This document shows positions 1 to 37,014 of a DNA stretch of 64,000 bases, piece after piece (the first letter of the stretch is position 1; the number at the start of each line of letters is the position of its first letter). Made by a program: the position numbers and the translations under genes. Under the pieces are notes generated by a model. That model saw only the letters and a program-made list of their open reading frames with translations. It had not been told where the DNA came from and did no database searches. The stretch comes from Hydrolagus affinis. Its lineage: Eukaryota. Location of the stretch: positions 1-64,000 of the forward strand of contig JAAILG010001041.1 of assembly GCA_012026655.1 (NCBI GenBank), written 5' to 3'.

Positions 1-271
1 ATGAACCCCATATAATGCCCATATGGAATGGCCCATATTCTGCCCATATACTGCTGGCGCACATGGGCCCCAGGTGAACCCCATATAATGCCCATATGGG
101 ATAGCCCATATTTCGCCCATATTTTACCCAGATTTGCCCAGATGGGCCCCAGATCTAACCCATATGGGTTATCTGGGCTGGCCCATATGGGTCCCATATG
201 AATCTTGGGTGCAGAATCCTGTGGGGCCCATATGGGACCCATATGGCCCCCACATGGGCTTGCTACCTGGG
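1..271. mobile_element. Terminal/subterminal region of a probable non-autonomous CACTA/EnSpm-type DNA transposon, truncated by the window edge
   Basis: Dense CCCATAT/ATATGGG motifs in both orientations. A 73-bp period is visible: TGAACCCCATATAATGCCCATATGG at 2-26 and 75-99. The array ends sharply at ...TGCTACCTGGG (271), whose reverse complement CCCAGGTAGCA resembles the CCCAG termini of fish EnSpm elements. Confidence 0.55.
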
Positions 272-1699
272 ATCTTGTGAAGGAGTCTGATTTAAATAGA
301 GCAGTGTATATATGTATGTATATCTGCTCTTCAATTACACGGGATCATCAGAGTCTCTGTTTTACTGGGATGCACAAGGGATTTCAATGTGACAGGCCTC
401 TGAGTCATTCATTCTACCCCCTGGCTTGAATGTCCTTCAAAGTGCTCCTTTTTATACAATAAACAATCATGCTGTTTAATGTTTTCACACCATTTTATAC
501 ACTTCTCAGTATGTGAAAATGAGCAAGGAATGGTCGTACCAAAAGGAAATCGCAGGCAGTAAAATTCCTTGAAAGGGGCCTGTCAAAGCCAAAGCCATGT
601 GCTTGTCCCAAATCTAAATAGCCGTGCTAACAAATTGCTTTTCTAATTTAGCCAATAAAGTTACCTTCCTTTGCAAGCTAATATTATTAATATTTATCAG
701 CCAACAAAATATTAAATAACATTGAAGGAATAAGCATTATTTCCCATCCTACCCCCTCAAAATATGCAAACTATGCTCTCTTGCATAGAACCATTTAATG
801 GCTATTTTACAGCTCTTAATAGGTAGTTTGGAAAGTGTGTGCTGATGCCTGCTGTTACCTGTTTGTGATTTCTCATTTGCCATGTTCGTAATTTTTTTTA
901 TATACGGAGCAGTTTAATTGCTGTAGTTTTGCTTCTTTTTCTTTCGTTATAAATTTCCAATAGTCCAGGGTTTTTTTTTCTCTCTGAAGCCTGAGGATAT
1001 TGTTAGATTGTGTGATAATGGAGTGAGGAGGTCTCTGAGAACAACAGCGAGAGACTGTATCTAATTCGCACCTCGCCACAAACACATCGGAACTGACACG
1101 TCTGATTTACTGCTGGACTGTTTGACAGGTGTCAGGCCTCAACATTTACAAAACACACAGAGAATGCTGCAAACGAGAATGCACTAGTAAAATGTGAAAT
1201 AATAAGATCTAATTCCAAAACAATTAACACCTCTCTTCTGTGTCCACACAGCAACTTTGTTGGAAATTAATATATATACAGAATATATTTTAAATGTTTG
1301 ATATGCTCCGCTCATTAGCTTCTTTCCACTATTATTAATCGCCCGAGGCCCATGTAATAGGAATTCACCTTCTACAGAAATATGATGTTGTCTTTTTAAA
1401 CAAAAAGAAACACACGTGGCATTATTCCAATGTGTGAACCAAATCCTATTTGCAGAAAATTAAATATCACACTCAAAACCTTTCCCCTTTCCGACATATC
1501 AACAAAGAATTCCCAGCAATCGGAATCGTTTCCCAGACAACATATAGGAAGTTCGGGGTTAGTGGACAATGTGGCAATAGGGAGACATTTGGCACATAAT
1601 TCTGAATCGAGAGAATAGTTTCTTTAAGAATATATTACACCGTAGATTCATAGAGTTTAATCTGAGAAAAACAACCTCACCAGCATGTTATGTCAGTGT

Positions 1700-1870
1700 G
1701 TGGCATTGTTCAGATTCACACTTTCAATGCAGAGCAGAAGGCCGCAGGTTCAAATCCACACCTGTGCCAAGCCCAAACTGAACATTGGTAGTGGAGCAGC
1801 AACTGACCTTGGCCTTCCACCAATTCGATCCACTGACCCTCTGTAGGAAGGTTTGTGGACAACAGGTTAA
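1700..1870 (+). mobile_element. Possible old tRNA-derived SINE remnant
   Basis: B-box-like GGTTCAAATCC near 1747-1757, followed by CAACTGACCTTGGCCTTCCACC, which weakly resembles a Meta-domain core. Highly diverged. Confidence 0.25.
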
Positions 1871-1964
1871 GAGAGGATTAGGCTTCATTGTGAAACTCCA
1901 CCCCACCGATTTGTTAAACAGCCCATCAGCACAGCTAGATTGTTACGCTAAACAAAACACATAA

Positions 1965-2198
1965 CACTGCAGATGCTGGAAGTCTGAATCAAAAACAGAA
2001 ATCGCTGGGAACACTCAACAGATCAGGCAGCATCTATGGAGTAAGGGAAGTGAGTCAATGTTTCGGGTCCACGACCCTTCGTCAGAAGATTCAGTCAGAA
2101 GATGAGTTCTGATGAAGGGTCGTGGACCCAAAACGTTGACTCATTTCCTTTCTCCATAGATGCTGCCTGATCTGCTGAGTGTTCCCAGCGATTTCTGT
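1965..2198. mobile_element. Penelope-like fold-back (inverted pseudo-LTR) element
   Basis: Inverted arms of about 92 bp at 1995-2087 and 2107-2198 with few mismatches and a 19-nt spacer. Each arm contains a hammerhead core motif. Confidence 0.8.
2102..2144 (+). ncRNA. Minimal type I hammerhead ribozyme motif (G12 mutated to A); a mirror copy lies on the minus strand at about 2050-2090
   Basis: Stem I ATGAGTT(2102-2108)/GACTCAT(2138-2144); core CTGATGA(2109-2115) plus one extra A; stem II GGGTC-GTG-GACCC; AAAA in place of GAAA; palindromic ACGT stem III; GUU cleavage triplet. Confidence 0.7.
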
Positions 2199-3429
2199 AG
2201 ATTGTGACGCTCATTGTCTGGGTTCTCATGTTGATACTGGTTATTACTTGGGGAGTAAACTGGAAGCATTTAGAATCTGTGGAACAAAACTTCCACCAAG
2301 AGGACCTACATATAGAAGAAAATCTGAGAAAAATGTGGAGAATAATACTAAACCTCAATCATTTGAACATAAAATGCTGGAAATTGTGATTCAGGCGTTT
2401 AAACTGCTTAAGATTGCAGAATTGACCTGGGAACCAGTTGAAAATATCATTAAGAAAATAGCTGCCCACTGAAGGCCATCGAGAAGGCAATTGGTGCTTT
2501 TTTAACGAGTTGTGTTCCTGAAAACATAAAGAGCAATAAACGAGGCCGTATTCATGAGTTGTTAGACAGGGGTTGATTGTGCCTTGGACAGAGGCCACAG
2601 TATTTTGAAGCCTTGCAGAAGTAAGATGAGCATTCAAGGATAGTCCACTATCGATGACTTGATATTCCAGTCATCTGGAAATGAAATGATCTCTGAGGAT
2701 TCTCTCGGTTTTCTTGTTAACCAGCTTTGAAAGAATCATTTGGAACCAAGAAGAGTAGGAATTTCTGAGGTGCACATGTATCCCTCGGAGACCAGAGGAG
2801 AATTGATTGAATTAGAGAAGATGATAGAACGCATTTAAGATGCATTTTATTGGCTGGTCCATTCTCATTGTGTCCCTTTTATTTTCAAAGGCTTCAGTCC
2901 AAACTCTTTTTCTTCACTTTTTCCTTTAGCGCTGCATTTTGTGCTGATCGAGATGAGAGATGAGAATGCTGGAGAACAGAACATTGTTCTTTTTAAAACA
3001 TGAGATAGTGATAGTTGCAGGGAATAATCTCACCCCCCCCACACCCCCAACCATTGTACTAGTGTAGTGTTTTCATTTCCCACTCCACCCGTCTCTGACC
3101 GAGATTGCCAATTCCGTGCGGAATTTGGTTTTTATGCGGTGGACTCCGCTCCACTGGGAACTGCAGAAACTCATTTAATTTAGCAAGGCAAACAGGATTC
3201 TCAGCTGCATTGCCAAATCAGATGAGTTTAGACGCCCAGACTTCATGCTGAAACACTGCTGTGCACTGGTTAGACAATGACTGGAGTGTTGCATATATAT
3301 TTCTGTCCCTCACCACACGAAGGGAGCCTCAAGTTGCATTATGTTTGTTTCTTCTTGGATGCAGAAAGTGAGCCGTGCTAAAGTTAAAGCGCACCTTTTG
3401 TAGTCAAATACTGTTCCCTTCGTTTCATG

Positions 3430-3844
3430 TACCATCTTTCATCCCGGTGAGGATGTCTCACTGTAAAGTGCAGTGACTGAGTGTATTTCACAGGTGAATG
3501 AGGCAACTCATTTCACACAGGAATTATCCCTCACAAACTGACATGAAATGAAAGGCCACTTTTACCGTGACGATTGTTGGCCAGGACATTCGCTTTTTAT
3601 TGTGGAGTAGTACACAAATAATAATAGTACACAGAGATCTTTGACATCCATTTGCATAGGCAGGCGGGATGGACCCTAGTTTCATATCTGATGGCAGTTT
3701 CAAATGATGGCACCTGCAACAATGCAGCACTCCCCCAGCACTGCGTTGGTGTGTCATCCTTAATTGTATGAGTTGAAAGTGCTAGCGTGGGGCTTGAGCC
3801 TACAGCCTCCAGACTCGGAGGTGACAAGGCTACCAGCTCAGCCA
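3430..3844 (-). mobile_element. Deu-domain SINE, long form, old copy
   Basis: On the minus strand: tRNA-like head, Deu core (TGTCCTGGCCAACAAT) and a 3' part shared with the other copies in the window. Confidence 0.7.
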
Positions 3845-4674
3845 GACCAACAAATATTTTAAGGGCAGGGAGCAGGTGCATGATAAAGTGTACATTTACT
3901 TCAGGAAATGCTCGGTCTTTGTGCTTGGCTTGTAACTCATCTGCTTGTATTATATTCAAAATAATACGAGTGTGTGGTTTAGGTCAATGGAAAAAAAAGC
4001 TCAGACATTGAGGTGTAATTTGAACCACGGTTCCTCAAATGTTGATGTATAAGAGTTAATTAGGGATTTTTAAACATATAAATAGAGAGAATGTATAACA
4101 GGAAAATAACTGCTCTTTATATCTTGAACATTTGGAAGGGTTCAATCCAAGTCTTGTTAAATCCAGCACAATAAGTTCCCCCACAAAACCATTGTTTTGG
4201 CAAGAATAAATTCTCACACAGTAAAAAGGATCTTTGGAAAAAGCAACCAAATTTCTCTGACTTTTTATTCACAGGTTGGATATTTGCTATTGATTTTTTA
4301 CTTTTTTTTTGAAAAAAAGCAATAAATCCTGCAGTGTCTGCAAATTATGCAGTTGTGATTTGTTTCATAAACTGCAAATAGCGTTGTGAATCACGTGTTT
4401 CCAATGCTTGCATTGCATTTAAAAATGGAGCCAGCAGGATAATGACTTATTAACTCACCTGAAGTGATTTGGAGTTGATGCCAATTCTGACCAGTGGTGT
4501 GCTGCCCTGAAATGAGATGACCCTTTGAAGCTGAATAAAGCACACGAATCTGAAGCCACTGATCAGAATTGAATCTCTGAACTTCAAGGCACTGTGGTAC
4601 TAAGTAGTATTAAGTAGTACTCAGTAATGAAGCATATTGTGCAACACACAGTGGATTTCCATTTTAATGCTCTT

Positions 4675-4760
4675 CATAGATCCATAGAATTGGACAAAAC
4701 AGGAAGAAGGCCATTCTGCCCTTGGTTTCCCATTGACTCTCTCAAAGAACAATCCTTTCA
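4675..4760 (-). mobile_element. CR1-type LINE 3' tail remnant
   Basis: CATAGA...ACAGGAAGAAGGCCATTC...GCCC, similar to copies at 7010, 21878 and 47271. Confidence 0.45.
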
Positions 4761-6539
4761 GTCACTGAGCACAAATTAGCTCGCTATAACACAGGGTGGG
4801 ATTTTATGTACCACAAACGTAAGGGGAGTAAGGGGAGTTCCACTTTATGATACAATACTGATTCTGGAAATCAGAAAAATCTACAATGCAGCAGAAGATA
4901 ATTCTACCTACTATTACCATTGAAGCTATCTATCCGAATCACAATTCCTTGCTCATTCACTGTATTCTCTTAACATCCTTCTTCTGTATATGCCTGTCGA
5001 ATGCCTTTTTAATTGCCTCCCAACTTTCTTACCCCTTCAAAGTTACAGCTGTGAAATGTGCACTTAAAAAACAGTTTTTTGCCTCAAGAGAACGGACAGT
5101 ATGAAACAAGCATTTTGTTCAAATATCAACATGTAAATGGAGGTGAGAGGAGAAAGAAGCCAGCGTAAAAGTCACAAGTTCACATTCAGCGTCCACATTG
5201 CACCGGTTACACTTGCGAAACAGCCATTAAATACCAAAGAGTGAATGCTGGAGGAGGAGGAGGAGGATCGTGAATTGTTTAGGAAATGATTATTCATGAT
5301 GGCTGCAAGGCCATGCTGTGATTAAAAATCACATTGCATATTTCCAGTTGTTACGCAGGGAAAGAAAACCAAATTGAAAACCCAACAGGTTTTTTTTTCT
5401 TGTGTGTGGAATTTATTTGCCAGTACCCAAATTTGGCCCAAATCCAACCACTTTACATTTAAATATGCCCGTTCCACTAAAGACGTTAATCATCATTACT
5501 GTCAACTAGCTGTTCATTTGGCAAGAATCCCCATCCACTCCCCTCCCTTCACAGAACAGTTAATGAGTTGGGTGGCACAAGAGCCCTGCTTCTTGGCGGT
5601 CTCTCTGTGTACCCGAATGTGAAGGTATTATTAAAGGCGTTGAATAAAGTGGAGGAGGGTTTTAATCACCCTGAGTGTGAGGTACTGAACGCCTCCCTGT
5701 GGGGTTTATTTGCTTCACTTTGAGGCAAACTGGCAGACGACCAGATGCATGTGAAACGGTAACAAGTATTTAGAAACTGCTGTGCACTAATTTTTTTTTG
5801 CTTATTCCACAGAAAGCTTTTTATTCAATTTAAAAAGCATTCTGCCGAGGTTAAGTCTGGGGCTGGGACAAATGAAATTTACTAACCGCTGGTGGTTCCC
5901 CGGTGAAGCTTTTGGACAGTGCATTAAACAGGCACTGGATCAGTCAGGCTCATTGGGAGCAAGTAAACCAGTTTCATTTATTGGACTACAATTGTCTAAA
6001 CGACTTGGTAAATTACAGAAAACAGACATTAAACTTCATGTTAAAGCCAAGACTGAAGCAATAACTGATTCAGACAGTGCAAAAAAACAGTGTAATCCTG
6101 AAATCAAATGTCAGAATAATTGCTTATAATATATGTAGATTAGCGTACTTTGTGTTTTCAGAAAGAATATATCCCAGTAATTTGTGTATAGTCTTCTATC
6201 ATAACACGTCAATTATTGTATTATAGTTTTATACCACTGGTGCCATAAATCCATTGTGATGTTAGATCCCTGGTGACATCCATCTATCATGTCTTCATTA
6301 TCTCCTCACTTTTTTTCTGTCTGCTTATCCTGGTGCAGGGTTGAAGTAACGGAGGCAAAAGTGCCTGGCACAAAGCAAACTCGATACTTATCCATTAATC
6401 ATTATGGATTCATCTTTATTCATCCATTAATCTCCAAGAGCCGTAAACAGTGAAATTCACCAGTGACGTTTCAGTGAAACAGACTTTCAGTAGCAATGTG
6501 CGCGGTCTTTCCTGTTCACCTCATTCGATTTGGTCATGC

Positions 6540-6922
6540 CAGCCTGGCTCAGTCAGAAGCACTCTGACCTCTGAGTCGGGAGGTTGTTGGTTAAAGCCGC
6601 ATTTTGGGAAATTGAACTCACATAATCTAGGATGACACTCCAGTGCAGGATTGGGGGAGCAGTGTATTGGCAGAGGTGCTGTGCTTCATGTCAATTTTTA
6701 AAGATCACTATTCGGGAAGAGGAGAGACATACTCCCGATGTTCTGGCCAACAATTCCCCAGCACAAAGATTGGTAATTTACTTCATGGCTGTCTGTAGGA
6801 CATTTCTATGCGCAAAATTGGCTGCCAGGGTCATCCACAAAATTGCAATCACTGCACTTTACAGTGCAACTAAAACGTGCAAAGCATTTTGACGTTGTGA
6901 CATGGCACTTTATAAAATGTAC
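6540..6922 (+). mobile_element. Deu-domain SINE, long form, near full length
   Basis: tRNA-like head TGGCTCAGT...CTCTGAGTCGGGAGGTTG, Deu core AAAGATCACTATTCG...TTCTGGCCAACAATT, then the L2-like 3' end. Confidence 0.8.
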
Positions 6923-7009
6923 GAATTATTGATATGTTAGCCCTGACACGCTGACGATCAGAAAGCAAAAACAGAGAGTCATTAGCAGAATTTTACAAAG
7001 ATTTGCAAA

Positions 7010-7080
7010 GAATATACAGCATGGAAACAGGCCACTCAGCGCAACCAGTCTGTGCCAATGTTTATACGCCACACGAGTCC
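7010..7080 (-). mobile_element. CR1-type 3' tail remnant
   Basis: ATACAGCATGGAAACAGGCCACTCAGC...GTCTGTGCC, a typical shark CR1/HE1-type tail in reverse orientation. Confidence 0.5.
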
Positions 7081-8304
7081 AGCGTGTTCATTTTATACAG
7101 CAACACAATCTGAAACATACAGCGGGCCAATATCAAAGAGTACATGTCACCCAATATCATAATTTATTTATCCGCTTTCGGCTCCCAAAGTGAAACCTAT
7201 CATTACCTGCATCTTGTATGTGCTATACCTGACACATAGCATTGTGTCATGCGCCCATTTGAATGCTGCATTATTGCGTCTTTCGCATGCAAATGACAGC
7301 CTTTCACAGGAGAGGAAAGGTAGAATGCAAAGTTTTCCTAATGTTTGAAGGAACAGCTCAGGATCCATCGCTTGCAATACAACTAGGTGGCTGTGAGTTC
7401 AAGGCTGTAATTCAATCCTGGGGTTCTGCTGACATTCATAAACTGCTCAAGCTTTACTCTTGTGGCTTATGACATCTCACAGGCCCTCGATTCAATTACG
7501 GCCTTGTGACTCACTGCCAGCTATCTATTATCCTAAAAGTAATGCTATTTGGTAGGAATTATGATGCAATATGAAAAGTTTTATCAATATAATTTTTCTT
7601 TTTTTTCCCCATTGGAGGCCAAAGACGCTGTGTACTTTGGACAAATGAATGGCTGCCAAGTGCACCTATCACTCTGTTGTTGAAGCTGCATTTCTGTGGG
7701 ACTTGAGTTTGTTTCGTGAATATTTATTACATTTTTTTTCACCACGTAGTTTCCACCTGGCTCAGAAGCATTGAAATGAATACAGTTTCAGGCCTTTTAA
7801 ATGAACTTAGTTGGTTGGCTATTCAATAAGATACCACCGAAATGGCCCTACAGACTCCAATCTGATTAATTGAATGTATTTCCAAATAAATAAACTTTAT
7901 TCTACACATTCGATTCTTCACTTATTGACGGTTCTGAAGGCATTGACAATTTTAAGGATAAGAAAATACAACAAAAAAACCTACAAATAAATTGATTTCA
8001 ACCCTGTGTTCATCACTCATGGTCCTTGTATCCGTTTGCAATGAACTTATATAGAGGCTTCTCAATATAAGTCAGCCATGCAGGCACAAAGTACTGAAAG
8101 CGATAGGTGTGCCAAGTAATTTTCCCCTGTGAATTGTCTGACCTATCCATGTTATGTAGAAGATAACTTCATTTGAAGGACTTTTGCCAGCATTGTTTCA
8201 CTCCACTGCCTTGCCTCACAGCTCTTCAGTTCCGTTTTTTTCTACTTATATTGAAATGCATTGTTTCTCAGGATCCAGGTCATCAGATATATAATAATAG
8301 GAAT

Positions 8305-8457
8305 ATAATCCTTGTTATAGCACCTTATCCAGTGACTTGAGACGTCCCCCCAACCTGAGAGGTGCCCTATAAATGTAATGTTGTTGTTGTTATCAAGTTT
8401 CCAAAGCGTTTTCCCAGGATTTATTGAAGAGTGTAGCAACTGTGTATTCTGTATGGG
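8305..8457 (-). mobile_element. SINE 3' end (minus strand) interrupted by a plus-strand L2 tail at about 8337-8391
   Basis: AATAATCCTTG...TATAGCACCTT, then the insert TTGAGACGTCC...CCTATAAATGTAATG(TTG)n, then CAAAGCGTTTTCCCAGGATTT...ACTGTGTATT. Confidence 0.65.
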
Positions 8458-10814
8458 ATCAATGTCATCAGGAATGTTACCTACTTTGCGGCTCCAACCA
8501 CTCAATCTGAGGTCCCATCCAATTCAGTCCCAGCCTCCATCCCCACCCACCCCTTCCCCAAACAACACAACACACTCTCAGCTCTTTGTACATTGGCTCA
8601 GAGCATTCAGCAAAACGTAACACATTTTTTTTTCATGAATATCAAGACACGTGACTCCATTCTTTGACTATGGCTATCCTTAGCAACTACTTGTATTCAT
8701 AAAGCTTGCTTTATTTATCTATTTAGTTAACGTACATCTGCCCGGTGCTGAGCATAAATATGCTTCAACTATTCCTTGACTCAAGGTATGACAGCCACTC
8801 TCATCTCCATTAAATATGCATCAGTAGATGGTGGCCTTTCTAGTTACATCAGCATACTGTCTTGCTTAGATTATAGAGTGGCACGAAATGTTTGCTTTTT
8901 GTGACAGATTATATAAGAAGTGTGACAGAAAAGTACTGAGATCGACAGATATTGAGTTTCAATGAGTATAGACTGGAGTTTAAGTTGCCATTAAGCAAAT
9001 TGTCAGATGATATCTCATATCTTTGATCTGTCAAATTCTTCCTTCCATTTTTATTAACCTGCTAACCCAGCAATGTCCCAGAAATAGAATCTCGATATCT
9101 GAATTTCTGGAAACATTAGGCCGTAGTGAATTCTTTTCAGGTGAGTTAATGAACACTCATTTATTTGCTGTACCATCCTCAAGCTTTAACATTTAATACA
9201 CTCCCCTCTACTTTGGAAACCTTCCCAGTGTCTACATTTAGCCATACACCACTTAAAAGCACCTACAGTTGTGAGAGTCTGTATATCACTGGAAGAATTT
9301 GCATTAAAGACAGAAAACGCTGACTTTTGTTTTGTTTCCATGTACAGTAATCACAGATGAGAAAGACTAATGATACGACACAGCTTACAGTGATCAAAGG
9401 TGGATCAATCCGCTTTGAGGAGTAATTAACTATTTGCTAAACTTGCACAATTGATTTTCAGTTAAACTAAAGAGAGTGGTTTTAAATGAAGACCGATTTT
9501 CACGGGTCTTATTAGGGGAATGCAGAGCTGGGCAGTAGATACAGCGCATGATAAATTGGTAGCTTTTAATTGGGAGCCAAAAACGCAACAAGAAATAGAT
9601 ATGTAAAATCCAGTTCTGCTTACCACATCCGACAACTGATTGTTTGCTAATGCAATTATACACATAATACAGGCAAATTGATTCCTACTTTGGGGGGAAA
9701 TAGATTCCCTGCAACACAATGACTGAAAGCCACTAACCAAAAAAGCATTCTGAATTAAAGTCAGAGCCAATGTGCCAAGCAATTGGCATAAACTCTGATC
9801 TCCCCTGAACACCAGTGTGTAAATGTATCAGTTGAAGTAAATGACTCATTGGTGGTGTAATTACGTTAGGGACCAATAAGACTGGTTGAAAATCAATTCT
9901 AAGAGGCCAATGTATTTGGTAGAAATCCATGCAGCCAATTCAGTACTACATTAGTCTAGAGGGGCTCCAGCTGACCTCTGTGGGATTAGGGTTGACACTC
10001 CAGTGAGGGGTCTGTCCAGGAAAAGACAGAAGTATCAGAAGACAGTTATCTCTTCTAAATTGGATTACTACGATCCACTATTTCAGTTTGAAATTTCTTG
10101 TGGTCAAGAATTTCTTGTCCCTGCCTCTCACTCACTCAATCTTTTGCCCAGCATTATTTCCTACTGCTTTGCTGTATTTTGCAGCGAAAATTTCCTCCGT
10201 GTGGCCTAACATGTTTGCTACCAAGAGACATTGGACAAGAGACCAAAGTTTGCAGTGGAAAGTTTAAATAGGATTTAATCCCAAATCTTTCTGAATAAAC
10301 ATGCCCAGTGTAAGAGGCTTTAGTTGCTTTGATTTGAATTTAGTCTGGTTAACCCCGTGGGGGCCATTATTATCATATTTTCACATGGAAGTAAAATAAA
10401 TATGATGGAGGTTACTTTTTTAATTACAACTGTGACTAAATATATGCTCTGAGGTTTTAAAAGTAAATAGAATACATCAAAAAAAGCTTTTAAAATCAGG
10501 GAGAAACAGAGGCAGGAAAACATCATACTTTCCAGGTTTGAAAGACCCACCATTTGTTTATTGTGGCCGAGAACACAGAGTTAAATGGGCTTCGATGCAG
10601 CTGATTGGCATAATGGACAAAACGTTCAGTTATTTTAAATTGCACCTCTTAAGTTTGGGGGTTGACAGCTTGATATTTTGCAATCCCAAAATGAAACAGG
10701 ATGCCTTATGAAAAACGCTTGGAATCAGCGTTTCTGGGGAACGTCCTCAAATTGTGGGAAAACCTCTGCATCGCTGCTTTCTCCCTGCTGGACATAACTC
10801 TGGGAACCCCATCA

Positions 10815-19998: not shown

Positions 19999-20293
19999 GG
20001 AGCACTCGACTTACTAGCGAGACACCTGTGTTCAGTTCCAGGCAGGGCAAAACCTTGGGCAAGTTTCCTTGCTCCAGCCTGATAATAATCCCTCAAAAAA
20101 CAAACAATAATAAATTGGTCATTTCAATCCACGACTGTTTGTGGGACACTGCTGTGCGCAATTGGCTACTGTGTTTCACCCACAAAAATACAATCAATTC
20201 ACTTGACAGTATATTCTGTGAAGTGCTTTGAGACATCTAGAAGTTGTGAAAAGCGCTATATCAAACGTGAGGATTATTATTACTATTATTATT
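19999..20293 (+). mobile_element. Short-form tRNA-derived SINE, 5' end clipped
   Basis: Colinear with the reverse complements of 36617-36932 and 31901-32154: ...GGGCAAAACCTTGGGCAAGTTTCCTT...GTGAAAAGCGCTATATCAAA...(TTA)n. Confidence 0.9.
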
Positions 20294-21275
20294 GTGAAGT
20301 GTAGTGCCTGTGTATTTGTGAGAAAGCTCAACAAAGACAGTGAGAGGCAGACATAAGAGGGGAGGTAGCAGCATTGGTACATGGCTTTGCTTTGGGACTT
20401 TACTGCTATTAGCCTCAGGATCATCATTGGTGGAAGTCATTTTTGATGTGCCATTTTGCAGTTGTATTTTTGATTGAAAAAAGATTTATGAGGAGTTGGC
20501 TTGGCAGATATACTATTTTTCCCCATGCAGCTGGAGGGGCTGGGTGGGAGTAGAAGTAGTGCTGGGATCTTTTGATGTTTATGGGTGAGGTTAAGAGATT
20601 TTGCCTTCACTACGTGAGCTGTGTCTCTTTCGCAGCTCTATAGATTGGAGCTTCATCAATACAGCATGTATTTTTTGGTGGGGGGGTGGGGAGAGGAGGG
20701 GGAGAAATGGGGGGAGGAGTGTGCAAGTGGTAGAAGGAGGGGAAGGAAGTTTCCATGTCTGCTAATGTTTGTTAAAATAAATTGCAAAGTTAACACTTCA
20801 TACGGTTTCAGCTGGTTGTACGTTAAGAGAGATAGTTTACTAAATTCCTCGCAATTTCCAGCCAGATTAATTAAAGCAAATGAAATATTAAAACAAACTA
20901 AACAACTTCCAGGCACCATCTGGGGTTTGAATACAAAAATTCAGTCAAGTTGAATCGCGTCACCATTTATGAAGTCAAAGGTTCATAGGCTGTGCCCAGC
21001 AATGAGTCCTGAAAAATGCACATTCTTTTCAAAAAATAAAACGGAACCCTCTGAAAAGTGGTTTACTCTTATCTCAGCCACAAAAAGTTGCCATTTTTAT
21101 GGTTCGTCCACGTGAAACCCAATAGCAATGTTTGGTTTTTGGACGATCAAAGGGAAATTTTCACTATTCTGATAAGCAGTTGAACCGATTCCCGATTAAA
21201 GATTGCTTACAAGGTCGGATTGATCAAATAGTCTAAATTAAGATCGCTCAACCAGATTTACATTTATCTGGGTGT

Positions 21276-21404
21276 AATTGGCTGCCTCGTTTGGCCCACA
21301 AAATACACAGTCAATCCAATTTACAATAGATCCTGTGACGTGCTTTGAGACTTCTCAGTGGCTTGATGAGGCACTATATCAAATGCAAGGATTTTTATTA
21401 TTAT
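21276..21404 (+). mobile_element. SINE 3' end
   Basis: AATTGGCTGCC...CCCACAAAATACACAGTC...CTATATCAAATGCAAGGATT(TTA)n. Confidence 0.8.
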
Positions 21405-21877
21405 CCTTACAATGTGTTTCTCCAATCTTTCTCATTTTAACTGTCGCAGCTGTGGCCTGGTCCTGTAGTAGATTTACTTGTGTTCCTGTATTTTTAAATT
21501 GTAAGAACGCCACACGATCCACGTGGAATAAATCTTTTACAGAGCCTGAAAAGGCAGCGTCTCCTCAGTGTACTTTAATTTAGTTTTGCTTTCTGGACAG
21601 CTTTTGTTACCCCCTCACTCAATTCTTCTTCCTCAGTCTTTCGTCAGTCTTCTCTCTGAAACCATTTTGCGTCAGATTTATTCTCTGAAATCTAGGAGGA
21701 ACTTTTTGATGGGGCTAATAATTGGGACAGCTGGGTCGTAACAATTGCCCTTTGGAAATCCTAGACTGGGGACTGAGAAAAAATTATCTGCCCTTCCCAC
21801 TCCTGAGAAATCTTAAAATCTATCTATGTTTGGAAGCGTTTTTTTCTCTGTAGTTCCAGTGTTCTGGCAAAATAAAT

Positions 21878-31652: not shown

Positions 31653-31900
31653 AGCTGAATACTACGAGTGGCTTGTCCAACCCCAACAATCAACACTGCC
31701 CAAAAACCTGACACTCTGACATTTGAACTCTTATTGGTTGCGTAAGCTGTGGTGTGTGATGTGTACTGTTATCACCTGCGATGATTATTACATCAAACAC
31801 CACATTTCTTTCCCCGTTCATCTCCCAGTTTCCAATGAGTGACCACCTGCATGGAGCTTGCCACAACTGCTTCGGGTTAGTTTGGTTGTTGGCTCTTTTT

Positions 31901-32154
31901 AATAATAATAATAATAATAATCCTCGCATTTGATATAGCGCTTTTCACATCTTATTGACATCTCAAAGCGCTTCACAGAATATACTGTAAAGTGAATCAA
32001 CTGTATATCTGTGGGCGAAATACAGCAGCCAATTGCGCACAGCAGCGTCCCACAAACATTCGTGGATTGAAATGACCAATTTCATTATTGTGTTTTTTTT
32101 TGGATACATTATTATTAGGCGTGTGGAGTAAGGAAACTTGACCAAGGTTTTGCC
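31901..32154 (-). mobile_element. Short-form SINE lacking the tRNA head
   Basis: High identity to 20045-20293 and 36617-36860; (AAT)7 tail. Confidence 0.9.
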
Positions 32155-33394
32155 AAGCAACAGGAGGCAATAGGACAGTGCAAAGTGGTCGTGGTGATTC
32201 ACTGCTCGTGAACTTCTGTGATGGTCCTTGCACAGGCAAACATCTCCACTGTGTGAGTCAGTCTGCTTAGGGTCTCAGGGTCTCACCGCAAGGTGCACAA
32301 AGCTGAGTTGGGTGTGTGACTCACCTGCTTGTTGAGAGCCCAGCTGAAATCCCTTCATGGGGGGGATCTTAAACCAATAATCATCCAATTTCTTCTGTGT
32401 TGGCCATGGAATTCGTTTTGTGGTGCATTGGAGACAGTCACGTAGCGGTTTGGTAAATACTTTGTTTCAAAACACACGCTGTTCTCATTTGGCCGTCTTG
32501 CCTGCAGTTACACGGTGGTTAACGCTGGCAGACTCCTGTGCGGGATGAGAGATTCGGGGAAAAACAAGAATAAAGAGAAGTTGCAAGAGTTGCCGTTTCT
32601 GAAAATGCAAAAAATGCTTTTCAGACAAATTTATGGAGCGATTTTGCAAACAGCCCATTTGTCGAGACCTCTCATTTCCTAATGGGAAAAGGCTGCCTCA
32701 AAGTGACGACCGCTCCCTTTGTTTTAACTCTTCAGAATTGTAGGGCTCGGAAAATGATACCACAAGCCTTGACTGAACTTTGTACAGTGTATGTTTCTCT
32801 ACACTTTGGCCTATTCTGATATTGGTGGGAAAAGAAGAGTTTATTTTAACTAATCGTAGGTGATAAAGTAAATACCCAGCTCTGCACTGGCTGGTGTGTG
32901 GTGCAAAATCACCCAGGGCTTTCACTGTTGCGTTGCGGGTTAATAGATTTTTGTCTGATGCCTCGACTTTCCAACAAGTTGTGATTTATATCACAGAATT
33001 TAATATTCTAATATTGACGAGAGTCTGGATTAAATTAGTAGCTGATTTCCTAATATAGAACAGACGGTGGCTAAAAGGATAGACGAAAAGACTTCTAGAT
33101 TCAGCAGCAGGCTAAGGGTGGATGCGTTGGAAATCTAATAGTCTCCGGGTTAAAATGTCACACTGTTGCCAAAAGCCTTTTCACTTCTCGTCATGCGGCT
33201 GCTGTAACACAAAAGTCCCCAATGATTTAGATGTAGCCAAATTTGATCCCCCTTTAGGCCACAAGCGCAGCTGAATAAAAGTACAAATTTGACGTTTTCA
33301 CAGTATCTGGTTCATTGGGCAAGTGGAGGTTATCTGGGCTGGATCACTGCCAGACCTGCAGACCTGTTAGGGTATTCTCAGTCATGGCTTTTCT

Positions 33395-35914: not shown

Positions 35915-36616
35915 TAGCTTCAACTAGTAATTTAGTGGAAGGTGTTCTGGAAGTGCCAAAGCGACTGTTACAGTAAATGTACTGATGTATTTAAGAGACA
36001 ACAGGATAGGTGCTTGTAAGAGAAGGGAATGGAGGGGGTGTGGGAGAGGGGAATCGGGTGGGCTTTGTTATATTTTATGTTTGTCGAAATGCAGAATTTC
36101 AAGACTGACGCACACCATCTTATTTTGGCCTTCAGCATCGTCATCAGTTCATCAGGGCTCTGCATTATATAAAAGCACAATTTGATGCCTGTATTTATCT
36201 CCACAGAGCCACACACTGCAGGGACTGAAAAGTATAGAGAAGTCTGCTGTTTGTTTGCTCTCCTGGCTCGTGCCTTGGTGGGCTGCTAATGGAAGAGTGA
36301 AATTTGTCAGGCTCCTCTGTTGCTGCTTTCAAATGAGGCCAGTAACATGATTTGTTGTCATCGCCGGCTCCTCTCCATTGCTGCCCTGATCCTGTCGATA
36401 TGTGCTGAACCTGCAGTGTTTTATTTCTGAAGTAGTAGTGGTCTGGACACCAATTTATACTGGAAATTACACACGAGCAAGTTTGCATGTCTGAATTACT
36501 CAGGATCAGAAGCATTTCATAGGTTTGAACTTACCGGATAAACATCAAGTTCAGCGGGTTGCACACCGACTGTATTATGCCAACGAAGACTGTGTATTTT
36601 GTGGGCATTATAAGTG

Positions 36617-36932
36617 AATAATAATAGTTGTTGCATTTGATATAGCGCTTTTCACGTCTTCTAGACGTCTCAAAGCGCTTCACTGAGTATACTGTAAAGT
36701 GAATTGACTGTATATTTGTGGGCGAAACGCGGCAGCCAATTACGCACAGCAGTATCCCACAAACAATTGTAGATTGAAATGACCAATTTTATTGTTGTGG
36801 TTTTTTGAGGGATTATTATTAGACGTGTGGAGTAAGAAAACTTGCCCAACGTTTTGCCCTGACCTACCTGGATTCGAACACAGGTTTTGCGCTTGTAAGG
36901 CAAGTGCTCTAACCATTGAGCTACAAGACTCC
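36617..36932 (-). mobile_element. Full-length short-form tRNA-derived SINE with intact Pol III A and B boxes (elephant-shark SINE2-like, from memory)
   Basis: The minus strand begins GGAGTCTTGTAGCTCAATGGTTAGAGCACTTGCCTTACAAGCG...GTTCGAATCC, with the A box at 36913-36923 and the B box at 36870-36879. The body and (TTA)n tail are shared with other copies. Confidence 0.92.
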
Positions 36933-37014
36933 ACAATTTATCAACTGCAAGGACTACCATTTTTACCATTATTATTCTTTTGCTTTGAATTTAGTTTGAG
37001 ACTGATCCTGTTTG

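Follow-up and report, generated by a model that had tools for sequence, protein, structure and literature searches.

Penelope-like elements (PLEs) are known to leave inverted truncated copies, one-sided tails, and target-site duplications (TSDs) at their insertion sites (PMC8557442, PMC3846280; these and the other published sources are cited from the available portions of their texts). Within the group, a CxxC linker between the reverse transcriptase (RT) and the endonuclease (EN) defines Neptune and is shared with Nematis (PMC8557442). Minimal type I hammerheads accompany metazoan PLEs, and for these, opposite-strand pairs 100-700 bp apart have already been noted in Schistosoma, while the intron of Drosophila virilis Penelope ends at helix I (Cervera and de la Pena 2014, PMC4209133). 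The lizard PLE PAc (Poseidon of Anolis carolinensis), studied in vitro, cleaves both DNA strands and extends them on an uncleaved RNA substrate from two internal start sites that bound the tail, with no difference in start site seen between the strands, and is predicted to be a dimer (PMC11167929). Animal non-LTR retrozymes are ORF-less, PLE-derived, and bear type I hammerheads (bioRxiv 10.64898/2026.07.22.740005). The origin of the inverted copies and one-sided tails, and the role of the hammerhead, are questions left by this work (PMC8557442, PMC11167929, PMC3846280).

Here, we followed up a hairpin in the window, i.e., the whole 64,000-nt stretch of DNA analysed, which an initial annotation had placed at 1965..2198 and read as a fold-back element with two mirror-image ribozymes. 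Its fold-back arms of ~92 bp are real (1995-2087 and 2107-2198; 93 aligned columns with 6 mismatches and 1 gap), while the whole insertion is asymmetric and larger than that hairpin (1950-2197); only the left arm has a tail, of ~33 nt, and the insertion is flanked by a 14-bp TSD that had escaped notice (Table 1). The insertion holds no ORF, and no further copies of the family were found elsewhere in the 64,000-nt window. Its seam contains a 10-nt duplication (2094-2103) of 2081-2090 and ends in a TG that is recurrent in the family and non-parental. Signed positions take the first T of TTCTGA as zero, which sets the predicted cut between +30 and +31.

Table 1. Parts of the head-to-head PLE insertion, with window coordinates.
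Feature	Position	Strand	Basis or remarks
Left target-site duplication (14 bp)	1936..1949	+	13/14 identical to 2198-2211
PLE tail, about +103 to +135, left arm only	1950..1984	-	Bimodal 3' ends of 94 sampled arms
Left arm, short PLE hammerhead-plus-tail copy, start at position 0	1950..2087	-	Aligned to 26 further fold-back loci
Minimal hammerhead remnant, GAAA intact, G16.2>A (2059), 2 bp of stem I	2053..2087	-	
Locus-specific 17-nt seam	2088..2104	.	Found once in the genome at <=3 mismatches
Right arm, tail-less short copy, starts at the A (-2) of the initiator-like motif, ends at ~+90	2105..2197	+	
Minimal type I hammerhead remnant	2105..2141	+	Native stem I of 4 bp and stem II of 5 bp; stem III a loopless ACGT; G12>A at 2130; cut predicted at 2137/2138
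Right target-site duplication (14 bp)	2198..2211	+	

An inverted 5'-truncated copy, an optional tail of 30-40 bp, and a TSD are the marks of a PLE insertion, and the locus carries them. It thereby resembles the inverted-pLTR insertions of D. virilis Penelope and Adineta vaga Pen2/Pen2a (PMC8557442), with a head-to-head 5'-truncated copy, a 30-40 bp tail at one end, a TSD, and a pLTR hammerhead. Unlike those insertions as the available text describes them, however, the window copy has no ORF, its seams and those of its relatives are non-palindromic, and both arms commonly start at the 5' edge of the ribozyme; moreover, the 14-bp TSD (family median 13 bp) contrasts with 8-10 bp in the rotifer examples. 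Animal retrozymes share with it the lack of an ORF, the PLE derivation, and the type I hammerhead, but are described in the portions available as head-to-tail tandems, whereas copies here are head to head (0/89 tail-to-tail) or single dispersed stubs (bioRxiv 10.64898/2026.07.22.740005). The head-to-tail tandem units and two active hammerheads of a retrozyme are absent from the window, where the units stand head to head and both cores are broken.

Other repeats also occur in the window. At 1-270, imperfect CCCATATGGG palindromes stand in tandem with a period of ~25 and fold as hairpins; this is probably one end of a different repeat, truncated where the contig begins. Other high-copy interspersed repeats occupy 20000-20302, 31897-32156, 36604-36952, and 21268-21414, with 160-245 matching places in the sampled loci.

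Both hammerhead motifs were correctly recognized in the initial annotation. The plus copy reads CTGATGA-A-GGGTC-GTG-GACCC with a palindromic ACGT, a GTT triplet, and A in place of G12, and the minus copy keeps GAAA but has ACGT changed to ACAT by C>T; both core lesions are CpG transitions, and a third at 2113 (position N7) is silent. Neither copy therefore retains the intact core of a minimal type I hammerhead. The perfect 7-bp stem I that had been assigned to the plus copy stood only in part: seven positions pair, as six Watson-Crick pairs and one G-U, and four of them (AGTT/GACT) are parental, while the rest do not come from the parent, the ATG at 2102-2104 being seam DNA where the upstream parent is C-rich. 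The T at 2144 of this copy is C at the same place in 69/111 arms. Because the minus copy begins at the TT before CTGA, it can form at most 2 bp of stem I and is defective whatever its CpG change.

Across the family, the majority of arms do specify an intact minimal type I core (CUGANGA / GAAA / NUH; column counts in 126 arms), as had been proposed from the consensus of the two arms; its stem I has 4 bp and its stem II 5 bp, A9 is followed by an additional A, and the ACGU is loopless. In common with metazoan PLE hammerheads (PMC4209133), the motif has a 4-bp helix I, an extra base between 9 and 10.1, G10.1-C11.1, a palindromic 15.2-16.2, and no loop 3, whereas its predicted helix II is 5 bp against 7-8 in that source as available, and both window copies are mutated. 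Stem I is near invariant among family arms, and stem II shows one subfamily change from C-G to U-G and no two-sided changes; divergent sister families sought for covariation yielded only mutated members of the same family among the 100 of 173 matches listed. G12 is retained in 79/103 arms, and the whole core is intact in 19 and broken in 46 of the 65 arms that cover it. The two different CpG hits, singled out earlier as a feature of this copy, are the norm across the family. At the three core CpGs, C>T and G>A are symmetric (13/10, 11/12, and 9/10), which marks the lesions as neutral decay; selection for or against active ribozymes was rejected on the same symmetry.

The long stem of a full transcript was predicted to outcompete the ribozyme fold (-177 kcal/mol, with pair probabilities of stems I and II of ~0), in agreement with the initial annotation. 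The predicted minimum-free-energy fold of the monomer pairs the hammerhead core otherwise, and the dimer fold is pseudoknotted. An Rfam scan of window positions 1-10000 (E<=10) returned no hammerhead match and only sub-threshold miRNA hairpin look-alikes.

Genome searches covered a 1.11-Gb assembly. The exact intact 34-nt core occurs in 265 copies and an exact 22-mer downstream of it in 8,530, against none for either reversed-pattern control, a frequency far above chance expectation. From the first 100 of the 8,530 22-mer matches listed, all on large contigs, we took 90 loci, which gave 89 distinct insertions comprising 44 head-to-head pairs, 45 single arms, and no tail-to-tail pair. The duplicate L083 was dropped from the pair statistics and the arm column counts, and the duplicates L011, L023, and L024 from the separate 27-locus alignment set. 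Several insertions (L007, L021, L028, L031, L039, and L255) lie within, or next to, a different common repeat whose ends are TAA/ATT-rich.

The Penelope-like origin claimed for the hairpin held up. In 21/30 loci (21/24 with enough downstream sequence), the arm lies ~400-450 bp behind a same-strand GIY-YIG match, and in long copies the region upstream of the ribozyme is pyrimidine-rich and then gives way to the end of an ORF. In this ORF, RT motifs, YIDD among them (RVT_1, E 1.5e-6), are accompanied by a CxxC linker and GIY-YIG (E 1e-3), the motifs being visible and both scores under the Pfam curated cut-offs; a PDB sequence search with the RT-EN frame found no match. Judged from sequence, the parent is an endonuclease-bearing PLE, in which RT and, at the C-terminal end, GIY-YIG are read in one direction and linked to the repeat. 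Before the endonuclease stands a Zn-finger-like C-x-x-x-x-C-x-x-C motif, and this linker, by itself, points to a parent of Neptune/Nematis type. At one locus (L186), part of an arm precedes the ORF and a full arm follows it, which is the partial-tandem arrangement of a pLTR; moreover, L186 and L197 have common sequence past the tail that in L186 continues into the ORF, and the arm is therefore also the front of the transcription unit.

Three further observations concern the parent. A long head-to-head insertion of the same PLE (L153:1-3500), with inverted ORF fragments of 422 bp at 93%, is a long counterpart of the window stub. Upstream of the endonuclease match in L186, at a distance of ~2,050 bases, a branch-point-like CTAAC, a pyrimidine tract, and CAG stand just before a long N-terminal frame and may represent a 5' intron that the parent element has retained. 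On contigs C4288, C626, and C7797 of G000, endonuclease matches with identical scores lie on opposite strands 25-32 kb apart and may be recent large inverted duplications or assembly artefacts.

The paired arms carry a regular signature. Among 94 sampled arms, 3' ends are bimodal at ~+102 and ~+135, and in 36 of the 37 classifiable pairs (44 minus 7 with an unclassifiable 3' end) one arm bears the tail (~+135) and the other does not (~+102; p = 3e-10 against free choice). In the set of 27 aligned fold-backs, the centre differs in each, a TSD is visible by eye in most, and the tail is on one arm in all but two, these two tail/tail pairs being a point against the one-tail rule. A TSD of at least 10 bp flanks 33/44 head-to-head pairs, as against 3% of mismatched flank pairs. 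Diagnostic subfamily letters agree between paired arms (34/34, 30/32, and 27/28), and arm divergence is 8.5% within pairs versus 13.4% between them. At the 5' side, in 36 pairs, the tail-less arm reaches further by >5 nt in 20, the tail arm in 9, and 7 are level, a trend toward a shorter tail arm that is not significant (20 vs 9, p = 0.06). In 20/36 pairs, each arm carries sequence absent from the other, so that neither arm was copied from the other in those 20 unless later deletions intervened, and such deletions could be the source of some asymmetric pairs. In five loci (L035, L036, L039, L073, and L125), the inverted arm comprises hardly anything beyond the tail, as expected of strict twin priming without strand displacement.

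Arm 5' ends pile up at the 5' edge of the ribozyme, with 44/94 at -5..+4 (p = 2e-22 against an even spread), while only 7/94 lie at the cut site (+28..+32), on which count hammerhead-cleaved RNA was rejected as the main template. In a second contig set, of unrecorded kind and perhaps not independent of the assembly, 122 contigs break at -1, and 7 of 11 hand-mapped strand-switch joints fall at 0..-5 among the joints listed (31 more being unlisted). The edge reads as an initiator-like motif whose A is at -2; at -31/-30 from that A, 31/45 long copies have a TATA-like CTTAA(A/G)A. A non-parental G precedes the initiator-like A in 47/91 junctions and, in a second subfamily, in 39/100, compared with ~26% expected; these tallies were made by hand on two junction sets that overlap in part, and nine parent-like CCCT rows were dropped from the first 100 junctions and none from the second. 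By the known consensus motifs, we read these features as a putative TATA box, Inr, and cap-derived G. A copied cap and untemplated purines on cDNA would yield such an extra G, and in three single-arm copies (T/GT)TG lies, by eye, between the target duplication and the A. Against a cap-derived G, however, the extra base mostly comes as TG (33/47 and 26/39), and G after bases other than T is not above chance (14/58, p = 0.23); some seams, including that of the window, are plain templated duplications. A short upstream exon that would supply the TG and a longer spliced stem I was rejected, since the shared sequence is only YTG.

Raw RNA reads of a coded organism showed no pile-up of molecule starts or cleavage ends, with arm depth about equal on both strands; editing and differences between copies look alike in these reads. 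A search of sequencing runs for the element listed no RNA run. Upstream of the ribozyme at L197:2056-2250, reads from runs X21 and X22 are 2-9 times orientation-biased and become even over the arm, at low depth and in the coded organism.

From these data, the window holds a single decayed insertion of an endonuclease-bearing PLE, made of two short hammerhead-plus-tail copies set head to head within a 14-bp TSD, and we consider it probable that they derive from the two 3' ends of a staggered cut, both priming on uncleaved RNA. In this proposal, the target would be cut with a stagger, one strand would be primed at ~+135 and the other at ~+102 of the same element RNA, both cDNAs would run off its capped 5' end, where Pol II would begin transcription with the first base of stem I, and host end-joining would fuse the two cDNAs and leave the seam. 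Two-strand priming from a staggered cut would give exactly the pair geometry, and the pattern of arm starts and stops suggests that one RNA was likely copied onto both cut strands as far as a capped start. In L1 twin priming, both 3' ends of the target are extended on a single RNA, which creates an inversion within the TSD; the proposal has this two-end priming and this inversion inside the TSD in common with it, but here the proposed priming sites are fixed, at a spacing of ~33 nt, and the overlap of the arms is almost complete. Single arms (45/89), of which only 9/45 have a TSD of at least 10 bp, count against this explanation. As with PAc (PMC11167929), two 3' boundaries delimit a tail ~100-135 nt past the ribozyme, the RNA template would be uncleaved, and both strands would be extended; unlike PAc in the available account, the parent here has a CxxC linker, and a strict one tail per pair and a putative 5' run-off site are seen. 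The strict rule of one site per strand is, however, weakened because the strands were alike in start site in that study, as far as its available text goes.

We acknowledge that the same insertion might have been made in other ways. The initial annotation had favored a non-autonomous family of hairpins with ribozymes, a view in which each hairpin would be transcribed and retrotransposed whole, and the best 40 of 6,056 first-look candidates, the ones scored, are indeed all fold-backs of similar length; however, they were preselected by the fold-back query, and the unbiased sample contains single arms and very uneven pairs. The window seam occurs once in the 1.11-Gb genome at up to 3 mismatches, seams differ at 32/32 distinct loci, and the 5' ends of paired arms vary independently, so that the common internal seam and fixed ends of a MITE- or SINE-like element are absent. 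The stubs also lack the upstream promoter-like box: since the putative promoter lies upstream of the start, they would be promoter-less dead ends, and therefore no hairpin would be copied again. This reading is largely refuted and now very improbable, and the window hairpin is one of thousands of PLE leftover ends, ordinary as a locus and not a self-copying family. Snap-back self-priming of one cDNA or of an antisense template, with endonuclease resolution leaving the one-sided tail, would keep the PLE insertion and remake only its inverted arm; it was proposed from palindromic junctions in rotifer PLEs (PMC3846280), with the tail ascribed to endonuclease resolution (PMC8557442), and would account for the subfamily letters common to paired arms, and 2/33 TG junctions match a longer snap-back onto stem I. 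We nevertheless regard it as improbable, given that neither arm contains the other in 20/36 pairs and seams are non-palindromic and of varied length. As a source of the TG, snap-back onto stem I was rejected: the second subfamily mostly has T at +36, for which snap-back predicts A at -4, whereas T persists there (T in 26/39, A in 7).

Dual priming might also be right with a different cause for the 5' hot spot, namely a splice acceptor or a block to RT, set either by the folded ribozyme or by protein bound to the pyrimidine tract. The upstream sequence also reads as a branch point, a pyrimidine tract, and CAG, which counts against the start-site model: tract and CAG adjoin the ribozyme, YTNAY-like motifs lie 30-45 nt upstream, and a minor cluster of 5' ends occurs at -26..-32 (5/94), with the D. 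virilis intron as a precedent (PMC4209133). Yet most hot-spot stubs retain a G or AG that splicing would drop, no constant upstream exon appears in the two partly overlapping sets of 100 listed junctions, target duplications adjoin the 5' end in single arms, and a fold should halt RT at its 3' side and not after it, which makes this cause, to our judgment, rather unlikely. Taking dual priming together with a capped start, we offer tentatively, with a little under even confidence, a joint reading in which a dimeric RT-endonuclease makes a cut staggered by ~13-14 nt, twin-primes a single uncleaved RNA at two fixed sites, each used by one strand, and reads across the intact hammerhead up to a cap at the first base of stem I. 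On this reading, the hammerhead would serve as a switch near the cap: its cleavage would take off the first ~33 nt and thereby decap the mRNA of the element, and it would not be a tool that cuts monomers from tandem transcripts. A literature search, for which most subscription journals and supplements were outside scope, found no statement of twin priming or of 5' run-off at the hammerhead for PLEs.

The value of the locus lies in its being part of a large natural sample that records how PLEs insert. Statistics on the pairs speak against simple self-priming, and they lead to the prediction of a capped start placed precisely at stem I. If this is true, thousands of such stubs would constitute a natural record of an unsolved step of PLE insertion.
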